From Octopus vulgaris (Eukaryota): DNA of 64,000 bases. Under the pieces are notes generated by a model. The model had not been told where the DNA came from and did no database searches. It saw nothing but the letters and a program-made list of their open reading frames with translations. The stretch is from NCBI GenBank assembly GCA_951406725.2, contig OX597815.1, positions 136,648,001-136,712,000 on the forward strand, written 5' to 3'. A program made the position numbers and the translations under genes. Below are positions 6,620 to 64,000 of this stretch, in pieces (positions within the stretch are counted from its first letter, which is position 1; each line of letters begins with the position of its first letter).

Positions 6620-6827
6620 AAACAGAAATTGGAGAAATATTGATCATCAACTATTGACTAACATTGATTATTATCCCATCTAACAGCCGTTTCTGTTTCC
6701 AATGTTCCAAAACCGCGGGAAATTGTAACAGAAACGGCTGTTAGATGGGATAAAATTTTTGTATTTAAAAAAATAATAATTGATGTTAGTCAATTGTTAT
6801 TGATCAATATTTCTCCATTTTCTGTTT
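6620..6827. repeat. Imperfect inverted repeat abutting (TA)n, containing a hammerhead-like 3' half
   Basis: Arms about 6620-6703 and 6722-6827 are reverse complements; GAAAC-GGCT-GTT at 6731-6742. Confidence 0.85.
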
Positions 6828-6889: not shown

Positions 6890-6893
<4 letters not shown>

Positions 6894-7217
6894 GTAAAGA
6901 CCCCCTTCGGTCATGAATGACCATGGGATTGCACCTAGAAAGTTACCCTCCTAGACACAAGTCCGGGCAAGGTTGTTTATGGAAGACCAGCAGTCGCCCA
7001 TGCATACCGGCCTCCCCTCTCCACGCCACCAGTGTTATCCAAGGGAAAGACAAAGGTCGATACAGCTTGGCACCTGTGACGTCGCAACTCATTTCTACAG
7101 TTGAGTGAACTGGAGCAACGTGAAATAAAGTGCCTTGCTCAAGAACACAACACGCAGCCCGGTCCGGGATTCGAGCTCACAACCTCACGATCGTAAGCTC
7201 GACGCTCTAACCACTGA

Positions 7218-7220
<3 letters not shown>
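6890..7220 (-). mobile_element. tRNA-derived SINE family C
   Basis: Minus strand begins GGCTCAGTGGTTAGAGCG (A box) ... GAGCTCGAATCCC (B box); embedded in (TA)n. Confidence 0.85.
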
Positions 7221-7281
<61 letters not shown>

Positions 7282-7422
7282 CATACATATATGTGTATAT
7301 ATATATATGTACATATATATATATATATATATATATGCATATATGTATGTATATATATATATATACACACACATGTATATATATTTATACATGTGTGTGT
7401 ATGTATATATGTATGTATATAT

Positions 7423-8144
7423 ATTTAACAATTAAGGATAACTTCTTAATAAGGGATCTTAACAAGAAATTATCAGGTAGTTAGCGTGAAAACCTCATAA
7501 AAGAAAAGAATTCGAAAATAATTTTTTTCTTTTGAACAAATTAATTTTTTAAATGTCTTGCTTTGAAGAGCTGCATTTAGGTATGATTAGTGTACTTTTG
7601 GTAGTAATGACTTTGTCCCTCTTAGTGTGAGGCATTTATGTGTATTAATGCCCTCTATACAATATAGATATAATTAATTTGTTCAAAAGAAAAAAATTAT
7701 TTTCGAATTCTTTTCTTTTATGAGGTTTTCACGCTAACTACCTGATAATTTCTTGTTAAGATCCCTTATTAAGAAGTTATCCTTAATTGTTAAATTTATT
7801 CCGAAATACTTTTCCTATCCGACATGCAGTTCGAAAAAGCCCGCCATTTACCGAATATATGATTTATAAACATTCCATGTGCTTGGCCGGAGTGAATAGA
7901 TGTCTGTTCGTCCTCGCTAGGTAAGGTTGGTGGTTTATTTATGATGTGTTCAGAATCAGTTCTGCTGAGGATCATAAGACGTAAGTTAAATGTGAAATCA
8001 CGGTGATACAGAACTAAATTCATTTTTTAAATGTCTTGCTTTGAAGAGCTGCATTTAGGTATGATTAGTGTAATTTTGGTAGTAATGACTTTGTCCCTCT
8101 TAGTGTGAGGCATTTATGTGTATTAATGCCCTCTATACAATATA
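7423..8144 (+). mobile_element. Non-autonomous PLE/retrozyme-like element: inverted arm plus about 1.25 copies of a 478-nt unit
   Basis: 124-bp inverted arms 7423-7546/7672-7795; 122-bp direct repeat 7545-7666/8023-8144 with one mismatch; hammerhead inside; TA-rich microsatellites both sides. Confidence 0.8.
7958..8015 (+). ncRNA. Type I hammerhead ribozyme
   Basis: Stem I AGTTCTG/CAGAACT (7 bp), CTGAGGA 7965-7971, stem II CAT/ATG plus GAC-GTAA-GTT (U-U at first position), GAAA 7994-7997, palindromic stem III ATCAC-G-GTGAT, AUA triplet, predicted cleavage after 8008. Confidence 0.8.
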
Positions 8145-8148
8145 AATG

Positions 8149-8212
<64 letters not shown>

Positions 8213-10216
8213 CATACGTACATTTATACAACTTTAGCAAGCATGTTTCTCCTTGCATTCTCTACGCTCACGCACAGTCACACAGTCACACACTCATGCA
8301 CCCAGGTACAAAAACGCACAAGTCCCAATTTCTGTATGGGATAATCATACTTTGCTACTTAAATACACGCTCATTCTTTTCGAATATTATTTAATCAGCA
8401 ATTATTCAGATAAGTACGTCACATAACAGAAAAATGCTTATATATTTTATCAAGGTTCTTCCAACAAGAAAAATGTTAATCACTGGAGTGGACCTCAGTT
8501 GTTGGATAAATTGCCTTATTTCATTATGTTATGTTATGATAACTTTCAGATAATGAGTTCATAGAGAATTTTAATGATAATGTCATTTAACTCAATAAAA
8601 AGTTGATACTCCAATATCTATGCAGTAATGCACACTTAACCTTAAATTTGAGAATTATTTTCATTCAGCTGATATATAAACGATTCCGTGGTATTTCTGC
8701 GATTGTATATTTCTCAGATTGTATATCTAGCTTTTTTCCCTTTCCCTTTATTATTGTATTACTTATGTAGTATTTCTGAAAGCATTATGTGAATTCAATT
8801 GTTAACAAGAAAATATGCTTGTAAGCATGTTTAGTTTATGCAGTATATGTCGACATATAGCTGTGTGTTACAGATATTCAATCATAAAGAAAGAACGCAG
8901 AAACATTCTCACCCAGACCTATTATTATATTATATTGCCACATATTCTACAGGATTGTCCTATATAGCTGACTTTAAAAAATTGTTTGATTACTAGGGAA
9001 GAGGTAGCTCGCTCGAATTGTATATTCGATACCGTGATACCGTGATGTATCCACGTGAAGTAAACTGAAATCTTGCTAAAACAATATGAAAACTACAAAA
9101 GGCGCCATAGTTGCATATATCGGGTTTTGTAAGCAATTGTCTCATTGAACATTTAAGTGGAAATTAGATAAAAGAGTGTATTGGATTCCTGCTATGAACA
9201 TGATGGCGGCTAGTAAACTGAAATTTGTAATTTATCTTCGCCGTGCAATTATGGAATTAAATGATTCGCCAAGCGATAGATATCAATATAGTGCAATTGT
9301 GATGAATACAGTCACATTTCCCTTTCGTCAAATGCATTTACGAACAAATGTACAGAGTATTATCATTGTCAAATGTTAATAAACTTAAGGTATACAAGAT
9401 AGGTGGATGTATGTATGCTTCTGTGTGTGTTTGTGTGTATGTGTGTGTGTGTATGTGTGTGAGTGTGTGTATGTGCGTGTATTTTTATGTGTGCGTGCGT
9501 GCACACACGCACACATTATTATATCTATAAGTGCATAATTATATCTATACTCACTGATCTGCATTCCTACGCGAACTTGGTAATTATAGTGATGATAGCG
9601 AAACACCCTCGTGAGTGATAAGAATAAACGGCCATGTGGGGGTCTATATATGTGTGTTTGTATATGAATTGATAGATATACATATAAATCTCTCTCTCCT
9701 CCATATATGTGTGTAGGTGTGTGGGAGAGAATTTTCTAGTTAGCTGTATTTAGTTATTTAATTCACCTAGTGGTCATGTTCAGTTGTTGATTGAATTTTC
9801 TCTAATTGGTAACCTCGTTTTTTATTGTTGGTATTACGTTTTCTTTTTATTACTAAAATTTGTGAAATACATTAATTAATTACTTGTATTTAATGATTAT
9901 TCTATCGATGGTATTTTTCTTCTGTTTTATTTTAAATTTCAGGTACAAATGAAAATCTGATTAATTTCATAAAATAAACCGAAAAATAAATAACAAAAAA
10001 AAATCAAATTGAAAGAAGACTGAAGGAAGTAGAATGAATCATAAAAATATATTGAATGACAGTGTGACGTTATATGTTTGCTTTTGAAGACTACTGAACC
10101 GTTATAGGCTTTAAAAGAGGATGAAAAGGAATAAGAATTGTATGAGGGAAACAGTAGCAGTTTGTGAAGATAAGGGAGAAAGAAGATATTTCGCTGGTTA
10201 AATGTGCAAGAAAGAA

Positions 10217-10456: not shown

Positions 10457-11844
10457 TGTATGTATGTATGTATGTATGTATGTATATGGAGAGATAATTG
10501 TGAGAGATGGAGTGGGAGAGAGTAAGAGATTGGGACTGTCAGAATATCAGTTTCCAAAGTCAGAGCACATTTCAAAATTGATATAAATCTAAATGTTATA
10601 GCTTTAGCAATATAAAAATTACATTGAATAGAAGTCAATATATTAAAGTGAAGTATTATATAACGATAAACATATGCCTTCAAACACGCACACTAGTTCA
10701 AGCCAATGGAAAAAAAAAACACATATATACACATGCAAGCACATACACACACACGAAAAGGTACACACATGCGCATAAGCTGACACAGAGATAAGGAGAC
10801 AGAGGCACATGCACACTCCACATGGATATATACATACAGATATACGCACATGTACAGTAACCGTAATATAACTAGGAAGGTACACCTTTCTAATTCTAAT
10901 AATTCTATGAAAATATGTTAGACGCAAAACCTTTCAGGGTGATGAAATGTTAAAAAATAAACAGAATACAGAGCCTCGAAGATAAAAAGGCATGATGTCT
11001 ATTTTACTCTATCTGGTTTCACTTACTAGATTTCGAACAACGTATTTTAGGCTTCTTCTCGATTATATCGATCCAGAAGTCTACGTGGTACGTATTCTAA
11101 CGAACTCGTAATGTGGACATTGAATATAAAGGAACAATCAAATGACATATTTGATACACCAATTCTGCGATTTGGGTTATGGTTCTCGCACACGCAAGCA
11201 CGCAAGCTCACACACACACTCACACAAACACTAGATGAAACGCACACACACACACACACACACATACTGGAATACGCTCAAATAAGGAAAACCTTGCACG
11301 CTCACACACGTACGAGCATACATATTCACTCATAGAACCCACTCAACCGCAACAACGCGCAGTTTACACGATACACTTTAACGCGCCCACACACTTAAGC
11401 ACACACGTACATGTGACAGAGATACACACACCTAACGTGTTCTCTCTTCTCCCTCCACATATAAAACAACTTCGGCCTCGCACCTTAAATCTTCTGTAGA
11501 CATAAGACTTACCGAATGCTAAAAAGACAAAGAAATAAACCCTTAATGAGGTCACAGATGGCTGGCAGACACCCCCTCCCACTAACACGCAAACGCAGAA
11601 AGCTGTCACACGAGAAAACACACAGAACAATACACACACACACACACACACATACGCGCACACACACGCACGCAATTCTTTCGTTTATTTTCACCTCTGC
11701 GCCTCATCTAAGCAAACACATACCTCCACACACACATACAAACCTTACGTTTATTTTAACATTTACCCCTCGTGTAAACAAATACATACCTACACACGCA
11801 AACATACAAACATGCATACACACATATATATATATATATATATT

Positions 11845-11941
<97 letters not shown>

Positions 11942-12174
11942 AATAAGAAGGGTAGTAATATTATTTACTACCAGGTACCCAGCACAAAAGACGAATTAGT
12001 TCATAAGACAAAATATTATTCATATAGAAAAATATTATTCATATAGTAATACAATTATATATGTATATATATAAACATATATAATATTATTAGAGACAAA
12101 ACCACTATTTTGCAAAACAAACAAGGAAAGACTTAATCAATACATAAAATTTTAATAAAAAGTCAAAAAAACCG

Positions 12175-12217
12175 CCACTACAATTGTTTCTTGTCCTGAT
12201 CGACAATCTTCAGGTGG
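12175..12217 (-). ncRNA. Minimal type I hammerhead ribozyme (mirror copy)
   Basis: Exact reverse complement of 12272-12314. Confidence 0.85.
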
Positions 12218-12271
12218 ACTTCCAATTTTCAAGTCAGTTTCAAATTTGAAACTGACTTGAAAATTGGAAGT

Positions 12272-12314
12272 CCACCTGAAGATTGTCGATCAGGACAAGA
12301 AACAATTGTAGTGG
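12272..12314 (+). ncRNA. Minimal type I hammerhead ribozyme
   Basis: CCAC-CTGAAGA-TTGTC-gatcag-GACAA-GAAAC-AATT-GTA-GTGG: 4-bp stem I, 5-bp stem II, palindromic stem III ACAATTGT, GUA triplet. Confidence 0.9.
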
Positions 12315-12504
12315 CGGTTTTTTTGACTTTTTATTAAAATTTTATGTATTGATTAAGTCTTTCCTTGTTTGTTTTGCAAAATAGTGGTTTTGTCTCTAAT
12401 AATATTATATAATATTTTACTATAAAATTGGATTTAATCCTAAATCTGATTTTTTTCCCTGTAAATTTGGATTTATTCCCTAATATTTATTATTTTATGT
12501 AAAC

Positions 12505-12536
<32 letters not shown>

Positions 12537-12574
12537 TTATATATATATATGTATGTATATCTATATATATATAA

Positions 12575-12706
<132 letters not shown>

Positions 12707-14484: not shown

Positions 14485-14848
14485 TATCCAAGATATTCTA
14501 ATGCGACCTCACCTCCGTCTTTTCATAGATCAGTAGGACAGCAAAACAACAAACACTATGAGATAACAGCAAAGGCAAGGATATGTGAGCAACTCATCTG
14601 ATTCTGTGTTTTACTCGCACATGTTGCTTTGTTCGATCCCACAGAGCTGTAGTTTGAGTTACGTTCTTCTGGAATAACTTTGTGTTAGGATATAAGTTCC
14701 ATATAAATAAATGAGTCAAATATGATATGTTGAATTTGTTGAACTCCAGAACAATAAAGTCAAGACCTATATATGTACACTAGTAGAAAAATACAAATAA
14801 CAACTGATGGAATATTGTTCACTTACTGCAGCTGATTCAGAAATGTCT

Positions 14849-14921
<73 letters not shown>

Positions 14922-14955
14922 GCTACAATAATAATAATAATTATTATTATTATTA

Positions 14956-16310
14956 TAGCTACAATGTGTTGAACTGGAATATGAATGAAGTAAAGAATAT
15001 AGATAGAAAAATACGCAAGCTGCTGAGTTGTAATAGGATGCACCACCCAAAGGCAGACGTAGATCGCCTTTACCTTCCCAGAGCCCAAGGAGGTCGAGGC
15101 CTGATCCAATTTGAACTAGCTTACAAAACAACCATAATTGGACTGGCCAAATATCTCGAAATATCGAATGACTGGATGCTAAAGCTCGTGGAAAATCACG
15201 AGAGGCGAAAGAAGCTTCATTCTATCATAAAGGAAAGCAAAAAATTTGCTATTGATCTCGTGCAGGATACCCAAACTGAACAACCCGAGGGAAGTACGGC
15301 AACTATTGTTGCAAAGAAGGTGAAAATGATGGCAATGAAAAAAGCGCACGAGCAATTGGCTGATAGGTGGGAGGAGAAACCTCTGCACGGCAAATATGTG
15401 ACCCGCAGCAAACAAGCTGATGTTGACCAGAAGCAAACCCATCAGTGGCTACGGAGCTCAGGGCTAAAAGCAGAGAGCGAAGGTTTCATCCTGGCTGCTC
15501 AAGATCAAAGCCTATTAACCCGGAACTACCAGGCCAATGTGATGAAAAATGGAGCAGACCCAAAATGCCGATTCTGCAACGACATGATTGAAACAGTGGA
15601 CCACCTAATCTGTGGATGTAAAGTCTTAGCACCAGTGGAGTATAAATTAAGACATGATAGAGTTGGCCAATGTCTCCACTGGCTAATAAGTCGGCATTAC
15701 AATATCAAAACTGCCGACAAGTGGTATAATCACCACCCTGAGGCTGTAACTGAAGGAGAAAATGTAACCATTCTGTGGGACTTTCCAGTACATACAGACC
15801 GAACCATCAAGGCCAATAAACCAGATATTGTTGTGAAAGACCAAAACAATAAAGTTTGCTTATTGATCGACATGAGCATCCCCTGTGATCATAATATCTC
15901 AGCGAAAGAGTTTGACAAGCTCAGAAAATATAAAGACCTACTCATTGAAATTGAGAAAATGTGGCATCTCAAGGCGGTTATAATACCAGTGATCGTAGGA
16001 GCACTAGGAATGATCAAGAAGGGAACCGAAAATTATATGAGAATGATCCCTGGCTTATCATCCCTGCAAGAAGTGCAAAAGATTGTCTTAACTGGTACAT
16101 CACACGTATTGGGAAGAGCATTGTCGATGTGAGAACTGTTGCTGCTCATGTATTTTAATTTAACTTTAAAAAAATTTTTTTTTAAATGAACGAACTATTG
16201 AGTTTGGTTTAATGGCCTACCAATGTATACTATGAGTTTCTTTGCCCTAGGAGTCGGGAAGACACTCGGCAAGAAATGGAAGCAAATTTGAAAGAAGAAA
16301 AAAAAAATAA
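14956..16310 (+). mobile_element. 5'-truncated R4/Dong-like RLE non-LTR retrotransposon in (TAA)n, ORF open to 16132
   Basis: HPKADVDRLYLPRAQGGRGL, LHGKY, AAQDQSL, CRFC..HLICGC zinc knuckle, RHD, KPDIVV..LIDMSIP..KLRKY (PD-D/ExK); (TAA)n on both flanks. Confidence 0.95.
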
Positions 16311-32854: not shown

Positions 32855-33051
32855 GCACTTTTAATTTTCTTCATATATCGTTTTTTATTTACTGATATTT
32901 TTAATAGCCCCCCCCCACTCACCAATATAATTTATTCAATTACATGAAACTCAAATGAAACATGCGATTGTTTTAAATTCACCGTCTTTCATATTTCTTT
33001 AGCTACTAAACTCTAAGATCAATTACTTGTGTGCCTTATCAGGCACATTAA

Positions 33052-33269
33052 AAAATAAAAAGTACACGTAGTATTACCCATTATAATAGGTTTATCATAT
33101 CTCTTTGAAAAGGTATATTTGTATAAAGGTTCATTGGATTTCAGTGCTGAGTGGTGGTGCAGTATGGGCAGAATTTTGAAATCCAATCAACCTTTATACA
33201 AATATACCTTTTCAAAAAGATATGATAAACCTATTATAATGGGTAATACTACGTGTACTTTTTATTTTG
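33052..33269. repeat. Foldback inverted repeat (about 92-bp arms, 33-bp spacer)
   Basis: 33052-33143 is the reverse complement of 33177-33269 with few mismatches. Confidence 0.9.
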
Positions 33270-33511
33270 TGATGTAATCTTTCGACTAACAATATTTGCG
33301 GCTACAGAGAGCTTTAAACCATCTTTTATATCAATAATATACCTATGCTGATGTAACAACAGATTGTTTATGAAGCTTGAAACACATGTGCCGCAATATC
33401 CTTTGTGTTCTGTTTTTAATTTTTGTGTAAACATTACGTTACGGGGACGTAAACGCACCATCATCGGCACAGACACACAAATACAAACAGACACACACAC
33501 ACATATATATA

Positions 33512-35303: not shown

Positions 35304-35368
<65 letters not shown>

Positions 35369-35421
35369 GTTTATATATTTATTATGCAAGATTTTTTATG
35401 TGAAGTCGTGTGTTGAAACAG

Positions 35422-35532
35422 ATATTGTTATATTTCGGAATGGTCATTTCGCTAGTTTAGCCAAAGTAACACCAAATATATAGTGCGTGTGTTTTTATTG
35501 GCTAAACTGGCAAAATGACCATTCCGAAATAT

Positions 35533-35540
<8 letters not shown>
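35422..35540. repeat. Inverted repeat (43-bp arms) between (TA)n tracts
   Basis: 35422-35464 versus 35498-35540. Confidence 0.85.
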
Positions 35541-35604
<64 letters not shown>

Positions 35605-46790: not shown

Positions 46791-47989
46791 TATATGCACA
46801 TGACCCTTAATTATAATTTATATATATATATAATATTCATACATATATATGTGTATATGCCTGTTTGTGTATGTACATACACATATATATCAAACCTAAA
46901 GAGGTTTCAATCAGTGGACCATTCTAACTTATATTTCGGTATATATCCTGTCTCGGTATCGTTTAATTGTTATGGAAGCTGTCATTTGTGTTTTTGGCGG
47001 GATAATTGTGAATAAATGAGAAGATGTTGAGCTAGGAAATTTTGCGCTAAAGCTGTCAAGTGATGTAAACTTAGCTTTCTTGGCACGAGTTTATAAATGT
47101 TCAGAGATTTTCAACATTATGCTATCTTAGTCTTAATAAAGTTGTTCTAAGATTTTCTTCATCATGCGCATAACGTTATGGCCATATCGACGATGAGATT
47201 TATTGAGCTCAACATCACTTTCTGATACTTCCATGTTAAACGTAAACAGTTAAACAGGAAGCTTAATTGTCACTGTCTTCCGGCGTTGTGACTCTTATGC
47301 TTTTGCCTCAGTGTACTCAACTGTAATGAATACCAGCTGCTGCTGAGTTTACCCCACCACTCATATTACGTCGATCGTGAGGATACAGAGGGTGTGTCTA
47401 AATCTGCTCAGTACAACATAAGCATCTGAAAGATTAGGGGGAAATGGGTGCACATCATATCATGCGCTCGCGAGTGGTGGCTGATAGAACCGTTAAAGTT
47501 ACATTTATGATTTTCGTTGGGCAAGCTGAATAGAATTCTATGTTGTTTGTTTACCTATTTTGGATTTTCTTTGTCACTGTTGCATTTAAAGAACGTTAAA
47601 TTATTTTTAATTCCTTTTAATTCTTGAAAAGATGTTTATTTTAATGTATGTAACTTAATCTGTGTATATTCAGATGGACTACATGATTCATGGCATAATA
47701 TTACACATAGAAGGCATAGCTGTGTGTGGTTGAAAAGATCAATTTACAACCACATGGTTTCCCTTTCAGTCCCACTGCACGGCAGCATGGGATTCTGCTA
47801 CAGCATCAGACCAACCAATACTCTGTACGGGAATTTGATTGACGTAAATTATATGTGTGTGTGTGCGTGTGTGTATGTGTGTTTAAACACACATACACAC
47901 ACACACACATATATATATGTATATATATATAGAGAGAGATATAGATAGATATAGATATGGATATAGATATATATACATATATATATATA

Positions 47990-48037
<48 letters not shown>

Positions 48038-48059
48038 CAGACAGACAGACAGATACATA

Positions 48060-49425
<1,366 letters not shown>

Positions 49426-53998: not shown

Positions 53999-56900
53999 AT
54001 GGCACCAAAGTGGGAAAAGAAAGAGTTAAATCTTCTGCTGAGAGCATGGACGATTGCTAGTAGCGATCCGCCGAACAACGTCATCACTGCCGCACTAAAA
54101 AAACAATGGATTTCATAGAACCATTGACCAGATAGAGCAGAAGAAAAGTGAGTTTATCCGGTCTTACATGCTTATAAGACCACACATCAAAACACTGGAC
54201 AACATAATGTTGAGGATGAAGAGAACGAAAAAGAGAAGGAAGCCGGAAGTCTCTGTGATCCAGGGGTTCTTCAGGAAAATGGATCACCTACCCAGGTGAA
54301 CGACCAGATAGTGAAGGATAGGGGAACCAGAGGAGCTGAAACCGGAAGCCCCCCTGTACCAGCGGTCCTACGAAGAAATGAAAAATTAGAAAAACAGAAG
54401 AAAAAAGGAAGGACCGAAAACAAAAATAAGGAGGGAAAAGAAGGAAAAAGCAAAACAACCAAAGCTGAAACCCCAACCAACCATACAAACAGTAGGGAAC
54501 CCCATGGAGGATCCAATGCCACCCAGTACACTTCAGGAAAGAAGAAATCTGGAAGGCACCGAAGAACCTGTAAGTTCTACCTGCGGGGCAAATGTTGGCA
54601 TGGTGAGGACGGCAAAAACTGCCGGTTCGCCTACCCGACACCCGCCAGAACTTCAGGGGACTCAAAGAGAAAAACCTTACCGAGGGAACACAAGAAATGT
54701 CTCCCAGGAAAACTTTCAAAAACGAAGTGCGCTCCTCAGATGTTCTGCGCAACCCAGCAGCTGAGCAAGAGTCTTTTTTTTTGCATAGCGCAAAGAATTG
54801 TCCGGCAGCTAACCTGGCTACACCAAGCACAGAGAAGGAATCCTGCCCACCACTATGCAAGACCACCACAGTCAACAGACACAGGATGGCCTACACAGCG
54901 GTCACCCCAATAATTTTACTAAATATTGGGGGTCTGTTGCATCAAAATAGAAACAAAATTTCTTTCCTGAGAGATCTTACTGCATGCAATCAAGCCCTAT
55001 GCATAGCCCTTGTGGAAACTCACCTCAACCCTGATATTGAGGACGCAGAAGTACACATACCAAACTATGCCATACTGCGAACAGACAGAAGGGAAAGGAG
55101 CCATGGTGGAGTTGCTGTATACATCCGAGATGACCTCACACACCAGGTCTTAATGACATACTCAAATTCGGTATATGACACTTTAATTGTATACATAAGA
55201 CAACATAATATAGTCATATGCACTACATATTGCCCACCGGATGCCCCAAATCACACAGGAACGTTTGAAGACTGCCTCACAAGAATTAAAGAAATCCTCA
55301 TGAATCTGGAACACAAAGTGACCATATTTCTTATGGATGATTTCAACTTCCCCAACGTCAAATGGCCCGAAGGTCACATACTCTCAGGAATGAATCATTG
55401 CAAGCAAGTACAGGTGGAGTCCCTGCTCAACCTCACCAATGCCTTATTCATGGAGCAAGTTGTACTTAAGCCAACTAGGGCGAATAACATTCTGGATCTC
55501 TGCTTCACGAACAATATGGACATCATTCATGATGTGAAAGTGACACCGACATCAGTTTCGGATCACAACATAATAGTGCTGTCTATGTTTGGGCCAAAAG
55601 TAATCAGAGACATACATACTAAAGGAAGCACATGGAAATCTCTCCAATCTGAACTTCCACAAAGCAGATTGGAAATCGATCCAAAAAGAGATCCTCAGAG
55701 AGGACTGGCCGGAATGTCTCTCCACACCAGACATTGACATGAAACTAGAATGTTTCATGTCTTCTGTGCAAGCCGTATGCCAGAAATATGTCCTAGAGCA
55801 CAAGGCCAAAACAAATAGGAGCAAGATTCCAAGAGACAGGTAGATCCTCATGAGACAACGGTTGCAAATCGTCTCAACCAACATCCCAAAAGTAGCGAAA
55901 CGTCCCGCCTAAAAACAACACTGATGGAAATCGAAAAAAGGCTGCAACAATCCTATGTGAAGGAGAAAGCAGACAAAGAAGCCTGGGTTATGAAAAAAAC
56001 ATTAAATCAAACCCAAAAGCCTTCTTTCATTACGCGAAAGAAACAGTCTCAGTGCACTACAAGATAGGACACCTCCTTCAAAAGGATGGCTCCCTCACAG
56101 ACAGTCCAACTAAGATCAGTGAGATGCTGAATGACCAGTTCAAAAGTGTCTTTACCACCCCGTTGGAACACAGACAAGTGAACGAACCAGTGGATTTCTT
56201 TGCCGCCTCACCTATAACCAGCGAGGCGGTTACAATAGAATGTATTGACATTAGCGAAAAAGATGTCCTACTAGCCATAGATGAAGTGGACACAAACTCA
56301 GCTGCTGGTCCAGATGGTTTCCCAGCCATCCTCCTCAAAGCGTGTAAGCATGCCTTGGCAAAACCCCTCAAGATTCTCTTCCAGAGCTTTCTTGTGAATG
56401 GCAAACTGCCAAGCAAGCTGAAGGAGGGAATAATATGCCCAATACATAAAGGGGGAAGTAGAGCCGATGCCAAAAAACTATAGGCCTATCTCTCTGACTT
56501 CACACATCAGCATAGTCATGGAAAGGATAGTCAGAAAGAAACTAATCGCATTCCTTGAGAAAAATAACTTGGTGAGTGATACCCAGCATGGTTTTCGACC
56601 AGGTAGGAGCTGCCTGACCCAGCTCTTACAGCATTATGACTGGGTGTTGAGGCAGTTACTCAACAAATCAAATGTGGACGTAATCTACCTTGATTTTTCA
56701 AAAGCTTTTGACAAGGTGGATCATGGTATGATATGCCACAAACTGCTTGACCTCGGCATAGCTGGAAAACTTGGAGTGTGGTTGCATGAAAGATAGGAGT
56801 CAGGCAGTAGTGGTTAATGGAGCCACCTCTATGAACACACAAATAGTGAGCGGTGTTCCACAGGGCACTGTCCTGGGACCGCTGCTTTTTATAGTGGCCC

Positions 56901-57925
56901 TCTCAGATATGCCCTCAAATGCCCGGATAGCCACTCTGGCCAGCTATGCAGACGATACGAAAGTCTCCCAGAAAATACAGAACCCCAGCGATGTTGCACA
57001 CCTGCAGCAGGAGTTGGACTCAATCTACAGATGGACTGAGGATAATAATATGCAGTTTAATGCTGAAAAATTCCAGGCCCTGCGCTACCAGCATCCAAAA
57101 CTGAATATTAAACTTACAGGATACACCGGTCCACAGGGAATTTTAATCCCAGAGCCTAAGTCTGTGAGGGACCTGGGTATCGACATGAGTGATGATACCT
57201 CTTTCCAAGTGCACATTACCAGGATGGCGACAAAGTGCAGACGACTGGCTGGGTGGATCCTAAGAACATTCAGAACCAGAGATAAGGAAACCATGATGGT
57301 CCTCTGGCGGACATTCGTCCTCAGCCGCCTGGATTACTGCTCACAGCTATGGTCACCCACCAGTGTAAAATTAACAGCGGACCTTGAAGCAATCCAGAGA
57401 AGATTCACAAAGAAGATCGTCTCTTTGCAACAGCTCAGCTACTGGGAAAGGTTGAAACAGCTAAGACTCTACTCCCTGGAGAGAAGACGGAGAGGTATGC
57501 AGTAATATATGTCTGGAAGATCCTGGAAGGAATTGTGCCAAGTTTTGGCATTGAAAGCTACGCTAGTGCTAGAACGGGACGACACTGCATAGTGCCAAAG
57601 ATCCTAGTAATGCCATCACGCTTCAGGACCAGCTTCTGCAACAGCCTGGGTTTCAAGGGTCCACAGCTTTTTAATATTCTCCCAAAGAGTCTGAGGAACT
57701 TGCACAAAGTAGATGTAGCAGTTTTTAAATCAAAGCTGGACATCTTCCTGTCAAGAGTCCCAGATGAACCTACCTCACGGCAAGAGGTGCAAATGGGTGT
57801 ATCTATATCAAAATCCATTCTTCACCAAGTGCCACATATTAGACGAGGTTCGTCGTAATAATAGTGTTGCACAAAACGGCGGTGCATCAGCATGGCCGCA
57901 GCTCTGAGCTGAAACTAGAAAAAAA
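53999..57925 (+). mobile_element. Near full-length APE+RT LINE (CR1/Crack/L2 group) with frameshifts
   Basis: ORF1 with CKFYLRGKCWHGEDGKNCRF; APE motifs LNIGGL, ETHL, RTDR..GGVAVY, DDFNFP, LDLCFT, SDHN; RT motifs GPDG, YRPISLTS, QHGFR, YLDFSKAFD, GVPQGTVLGPLLF, YADDTK. Confidence 0.95.
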
Positions 57926-63403: not shown

Positions 63404-63406
<3 letters not shown>

Positions 63407-64000
63407 TTGACCAGAAGCAAACCCATCAGTGGCTACGGAGTTCAGGGCTAAAAGCAGAGAGCGAAGGTTTCATCCTGGCTGCTCAAGATCAAAGCCTATT
63501 AACCCGGAACTACCAGGCCAATGTGATGAAAAATGGAGCAGACCCAAAATGCCGATTCTGCAACGACATGATTGAAACAGTGGACCACCTAATCTCTGGA
63601 TGTAATGTCTTAGCACCAGTGGAGTATAAATTAAGACATGACAGAGTTGGCTAATATCTACACTGGCTAATAAGTCGGCATTACAATATCAAAACTGCCG
63701 ACAAGTGGTATAATCATCACCCTGAAGCTGTAACTAAAGGAGAAAATGTAACCATTCTGTGGGACTTTCCAGTACATACAGACCGAACCATCAAAGCCAA
63801 TAAGCCAGATATTGTTGTGAAAGACCAAAACAATAAAATTTGCTTATTGATCGACATGAGCATCCCCTGTGATCATAATATCTCAGCGAAAGAGTTTGAC
63901 AAGCTCAGAAAATATAAAGACCTGCTCATTGAAATTGAGAAAATGTGGCATCTCAAGGCGGTTACAATACCAGTGATCGTAGGAGCACTAGGAATGATCA
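63404..64000 (+). mobile_element. Second copy of the R4/Dong-like element, 5'-truncated in (TAA)n, runs off window
   Basis: Collinear with 15420-16016, about 15 substitutions by eye, in-frame TAA at 63652-63654. Confidence 0.95.

Follow-up and report, generated by a model that had tools for sequence, protein, structure and literature searches.

The insert at positions 7423–8144 of the window, the 64,000-nucleotide stretch of Octopus vulgaris DNA that we analysed, is likely a recent, dispersed copy of a high-copy, non-coding 478-nt non-LTR retrozyme, namely a non-autonomous PLE derivative that arrived by a PLE-style insertion. This kind of system is already known, and the insert adds one member to it and no new system. 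An initial annotation had put the element forward as a retrozyme candidate of recent origin. Both the candidacy and the recent date are supported by a high-copy family, the presence of all three joins in other copies, a strong predicted fold and a TSD.

The architecture described in that annotation, A(inverted)-B-A-C(hammerhead)-B beside (TA)n, holds in every part. The insert comprises 1.25 units of 478 nt plus an inverted arm, 721 bp within the TSD, with TA arrays on both sides; the unit has a GC content of 33%. Segment B, a pLTR-like direct repeat on the plus strand, is present at 7544–7666 and 8022–8144, an offset of 478 nt; the two copies are identical at 122 of 123 positions, with the sole mismatch at 7594/8072. 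Between them on the same strand lie a TA-like linker with segment A (7667–7795) and segment C (7796–8021), the proposed 3′ part of the self-cleaved RNA, which holds the hammerhead. The inverted arm A′ (7423–7546, minus strand) is the reverse complement of 7672–7795 at all 124 positions; it is 5′-truncated and head-to-head with the direct copy, and its outer end corresponds to 7795. The second B begins roughly 14 nt past the predicted cut (8008/8009), where about 15 nt had been estimated. The insert overlaps with no ORF of at least 150 aa, in keeping with the earlier observation that it has no recognisable ORF, and the longest stop-free stretch, about 76 codons, is on the minus strand. At each of the 13 variant positions listed in B the two copies agree, which, together with the identical A arms, fits a single source.

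A 16-bp duplication encloses the whole insert. The probable left TSD copy (7409–7424) is the end of a TA-rich array at 7221–7424 and is identical to the probable right copy (8146–8161) at the start of a TA array at 8140–8216; a comparable duplication was present in 4 of 2808 random pairs of array ends and starts, with the real pair possibly among them. The two ends of the element lie 129 nt apart along the unit. The right terminus, the 3′ end of the second B, is 136 nt past the cut and is the probable first RT start, and the left end, corresponding to the 3′ end of A, is 265 nt past the cut and is the probable second RT start. At the inversion junction (7534–7546), the arm shows imperfect microhomology to the first letters past the hammerhead cut (8011–8024, in the other register), with 12 of 14 columns matching. 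Of the 478 positions of the unit, 79, grouped in 10 clusters, would allow a fold-back that scores at least as well.

The type I hammerhead motif (7958–8015, plus strand) was identified as a descriptor match. Its core consists of CTGAGGA (7965–7971), GAAA (7994–7997) and the cleavage triplet ATA ending at 8008, and it has a 7-bp stem I, a 4-bp stem III with a palindromic centre and a U-U pair at the base of stem II. It is the single match of the canonical descriptor on either strand of the 64-kb window, and 200 block shuffles gave 0.005 matches per window with the loose form of the descriptor and none with the strict form; the descriptor uses a presumed core consensus. Rfam returned no hammerhead at the gathering score or at E ≤ 10, where its 63 matches were mainly to miRNA models driven by microsatellites. 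Exact-motif scans of metagenome contigs, viral contigs and prokaryote genomes gave 0 matches. The insert carries just one hammerhead because the duplicated B begins past the cut and stops short of the motif, and the locus therefore cannot itself release a doubly cut monomer or a circle.

The catalytic fold of the monomer is predicted at −8.5 kcal/mol, 4 kcal/mol above a misfold at −12.5 kcal/mol, and intermolecular pairing of two copies through stem III is predicted at −11.9 kcal/mol. On this modelling, a dimeric ribozyme acting through the palindromic stem III is likely. Metazoan hammerheads with a palindromic loop 3 are described as dimeric in the available part of an earlier study (PMC4209133). 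In the accessible portion of a recent preprint, eight of nine predicted Xenopus retrozymes showed no cleavage in vitro (Li et al. 2026; 10.64898/2026.07.22.740005), so activity of the 7958–8015 motif is not to be assumed.

The 478-nt unit as a whole is predicted to fold strongly. Read from the cut, its circular minimum free energy is −120.8 kcal/mol against a shuffle mean of −90.0 kcal/mol (z −5.4), and none of 60 shuffles folds as low. In the predicted structure 68% of the unit is paired, stem I is formed, and B pairs with both A and C. Taken by itself, the 81-nt hammerhead region has no advantage over its shuffles in folding (z −1.22). Among the 40 of 48 variant rows listed, 12 variants break predicted pairs where random placement would give 16.8 (P=0.047), and a single row falls in the hammerhead where 4.6 would be expected; the 23 common variants break 6 pairs against 9.7 expected (P=0.057). 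This pair-keeping test is one-sided, unphased and based on the minimum free energy structure of the window's own sequence, and it gives weak support to the modelled fold.

Evidence that the unit belongs to a family comes from sequencing-run contigs. Of the 24 runs listed, 20 contain part of the stretch, with a best share of 0.64; these come from 9 studies and carry 5 organism labels, and none of them is recorded as RNA. One unit (7667–8144) was compared with the contigs of four runs, X2, X3, X10 and X12, of which the latter two are presumed RNA runs whose contig coverage was not taken as expression. From totals of 48 variant rows, 162 loose ends and 2256 pieces, the comparison draws on 40, 24 and 32, respectively; such contigs cannot show ends, strand, circles or arrays. 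Contigs matching the unit numbered 901, 1225, 64 and 29 in the four runs, and 30 of 30 bins were covered in each. One X3 contig (DNA) has a depth of 20,078, which, if ordinary coverage is assumed, implies hundreds of copies or more.

All three joins of the unit are found in other copies. The A–C join is bridged by diverged copies in X10 (record 4, 7713–7863) and X12 (record 11, 7733–7869) and so is not private to this insert. The cut site and the C–B join are bridged by X10 record 7 and X12 record 14; contigs that span the cut are compatible with DNA, uncut RNA or circles alike. In X2, X3 and X10, B is joined to A through linkers that vary and are partly TA-like. At the family level the unit thus closes on itself, with which arrays, circles or many partial tandems fit alike. 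A B-to-A joint that ‘goes back’ was considered as evidence of a circle and rejected, since the same join is present in the window at 7666/7667. Among the pieces listed, no DNA-run contig bridges the A–C join by the 31-letter rule, and among the joints listed in the four runs none matches the strand switch of the inversion (A′–B). Depth falls near 7815 to 1,152 in X2 and 6,606 in X3, against roughly 1e5 or more nearby, and many copies may differ at the A–C join; the listed indels and diverged loose ends explain the dip, but an ORF at A–C in some copies is possible. Loose ends past 7762 run through A-end-like sequence into (TA)n in at least 17 contigs of X2 and at least 2 of X10, which suggests that the end of A (7795) is a recurrent terminus and a second priming site. 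A related, more abundant sequence has the terminal ~50 nt of B (8093–8144) in common with the unit, and this part is about tenfold deeper in X10. This relative is a possible handle on a sister family or an autonomous partner.

The window consists of animal DNA rich in microsatellites, with remnants of LINE and Tc1-like elements. About 4 kb from the insert, between TA arrays at 11824–11945 and 12505–12703, lies a perfect palindrome (12078–12411) with 167-nt arms and a short-stem-I hammerhead in each (12276–12310 on the plus strand, 12213–12179 on the minus strand). It looks like a head-to-head pair of 5′-truncated PLE ends, its junction lies 66 nt upstream of its own cut, and it has no significant sequence match to the 478-nt insert (best E=1.9). 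Fold-back MITE-like elements are present at 6620–6827, 33045–33275 and 35316–35603, the first and third adjoining TA arrays. At 6891–7220, between two TA arrays, lies a SINE-like insert that we take to resemble octopus SINEs; its head is tRNA-like and is on the minus strand. The C-terminal remnant of a non-LTR retrotransposon at 14801–16132, for which a protein search over 14966–16129 gave named matches from marine animals at 50–63%, has a second, 97.5% identical copy at 63404–64000 that is cut by the window end. Judging by motifs, 54607–57858 is presumably a broken LINE ORF2 (endonuclease and RT pieces) and 47806–49120 presumably a broken Tc1/mariner-like transposase.

Most features of the insert are shared with metazoan non-LTR retrozymes as these are described in the available portions of two papers (Cervera and de la Pena 2020, PMC7229834; Li et al. 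2026). It has a type I hammerhead motif, no coding ORF, a GC content below 45%, a self-paired monomer with a predicted stem I, a high copy number in a repeated family of a few hundred bp, and a TSD that at 16 bp exceeds 4 bp. In having a U-U mismatch at the base of helix II, it resembles the axolotl HHR_Amex2. At 478 nt, the unit exceeds the 150–450 bp given for retrozymes by Cervera and de la Pena (2020) and falls within the 51–972 bp of Li et al. (2026). Unlike metazoan retrozymes, the insert has an inverted arm and, in its 1.25 units, a single ribozyme; the word ‘inverted’ does not occur in the main text of PMC7229834. No array bearing two or more hammerheads was seen among the short contigs. 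With one hammerhead at the locus, where tandem units would have at least two, the insert fails the two-ribozyme definition of an active retrozyme in the accessible part of the preprint. In the preprint's terms it is a one-ribozyme (monomer) derivative and not an active array. By title, the literature held no report of a cephalopod retrozyme that we could find; the family may be recorded in supplements, Repbase or Dfam.

The mode of insertion resembles that of EN+ PLEs, Penelope/Poseidon and Neptune, as far as the available text of the two sources describes them (Craig et al. 2021, PMC8557442; Arkhipova et al. 2013, PMC3846280). Such insertions carry a partial tandem, an inverted 5′-truncated copy and a (TA)n target, and in a rotifer PLE there is a 15-bp overlap between the inverted pLTR and the direct one. 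The insert likewise has a partial tandem, a head-to-head inverted 5′-truncated copy with a short overlap, a (TA)n microsatellite target and a TSD, and its 3′ end lies within the ~100–140 nt past the hammerhead cut seen in EN+ PLEs. TSDs of 8–10 bp are known from PLEs, whose pLTRs can also move non-PLE sequence in trans (Arkhipova et al. 2013). Unlike EN+ PLEs, the insert holds no RT and GIY-YIG ORF, its inverted arm derives from sequence beyond the direct repeat, and its ends are 129 nt apart where PLEs have a 30–40-bp tail between alternative ends. Its stem I of 7 bp also compares with 4–5 bp in minimal PLE hammerheads, as given in the available part of PMC4209133. Non-autonomous Chlamys PLEs such as MRC1 are, like the insert, pLTR-forming and head-to-tail and, as is proposed for the insert, mobilised in trans; unlike the insert, they are green-algal and, in the portion of the source at hand, mostly without canonical hammerheads (Craig et al. 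2021).

The same anatomy could be read as the terminal fragments of an autonomous PLE, with B–A, C–B and A′ being three 5′-truncated pLTR pieces that a single insertion joined, in which case the 478-nt unit would have no independent existence. We consider this unlikely. The anatomy is indeed that of autonomous PLE insertions in the available text of PMC8557442 and PMC3846280, 7795 resembles a recurrent end with a depth dip at 7795–7826, and 8093–8144 is common to a more abundant relative. However, the A–C join is bridged by the diverged contigs from two studies (X10 record 4 and X12 record 11), B pairs across that join in the predicted fold, and no ORF begins in B–A.

An origin at the DNA level, whether as a MITE-like fold-back A′–B–A beside a satellite fragment or as a repair-made inverted duplication of a hammerhead satellite, seems still less probable. 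A′–B–A does look TIR-like and other fold-back elements lie beside TA arrays in the window, but other copies show A running on into C, the duplication of B keeps the register, the whole 721 bp and not A′–B–A lies within the TSD, and no A′–B joint is among those listed in the four runs. That last result would also suit an assembly artefact, in which the perfect arm arose from a chimeric fold-back read or from wrongly joined copies of the high-copy repeat; four runs that may represent other individuals or species, the best run sharing just 0.64 of words, blunt this argument. We regard an artefact as very improbable, as the arm goes no further than the element itself, inverted copying is absent from the flanks, the 16-bp TSD surrounds the insert and there is one difference between the B copies.

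For the retrozyme insertion that we favor, a route can be proposed. A master locus would be transcribed through tandem units, and hammerheads, probably acting as dimers through the palindromic stem III, would cut the RNA into B-A-C monomers that may be ligated into circles. The RT/GIY-YIG protein of a putative PLE would nick both strands of a (TA)n array and prime inside the RNA. The first strand would start 136 nt past the cut, where B ends, copy one full unit across one hammerhead site and stop at about the next cut site to yield B-A-C-B, while the other strand would start at the end of A and extend for 124 nt. Annealing of the two cDNA ends by the 12-of-14 microhomology would leave the head-to-head inverted arm and the 16-bp duplication. 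Alternatively, fold-back self-priming of one cDNA would replace the second strand and the annealing, which is how the authors of PMC3846280 read inverted junctions in the part of their paper available. In the accessible text of PMC11167929, both strands of AT-rich DNA serve the anole PLE protein as substrates for cutting and extension, and its reverse transcription begins within the RNA, downstream of the hammerhead.

The initial annotation had proposed more than one pass of reverse transcription around a circular or tandem RNA, with a snap-back or template switch for the inverted end. Synthesis over more than one unit length stands; a circle specifically does not follow, as other templates give the same DNA. 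The DNA fits three templates alike: a circle, a tandem RNA left uncut, and linear monomers linked by a template jump. The inverted end is better described as the standard head-to-head inverted 5′ copy of PLEs, whose outer end (7795) meets (TA)n in relatives. Run-off of the first cDNA at a 5′ end made by the ribozyme would lead one to expect microhomology to the letters just past the cut. This 5′ junction is a weak indication, being a single case with a chance of about 10%, and we downgraded the argument because one of the 10 equal microhomology clusters falls there and the junction of the second element, the palindrome, lies upstream of its cut. It is possible, if rather doubtful, that the insert is the footprint of ribozyme-cut or circular retrozyme RNA templating a PLE RT in vivo, with both target strands primed at two internal sites 129 nt apart and with run-off of the first cDNA at the hammerhead-made 5′ end.

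As a single locus, the insert is one further copy of a known class. What it displays is a PLE insertion signature on a retrozyme-like unit. Metazoan retrozymes have been proposed to be PLE-mobilised or PLE-derived (Cervera and de la Pena 2020; Li et al. 2026), the support in the published text available consisting of co-occurrence and pLTR similarity, and the retrozyme life cycle is called poorly evidenced in the accessible part of the preprint (Li et al. 2026). Furthermore, the 5′ junction adjoins the ribozyme cut, whereas in vitro work on the anole PLE, in the text available, found hammerhead cleavage dispensable (PMC11167929). Because the family is young and of high copy number, its 5′ junctions and 3′ ends can be counted genome-wide, which offers a test of whether the template is a cut monomer, a circle or an uncut tandem. 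If a PLE RT does act on ribozyme-cut RNA, thousands of copies would provide a direct, countable test of the proposed mobilisation of animal retrozymes by PLEs, and the same copies would also test the role of hammerhead cleavage.
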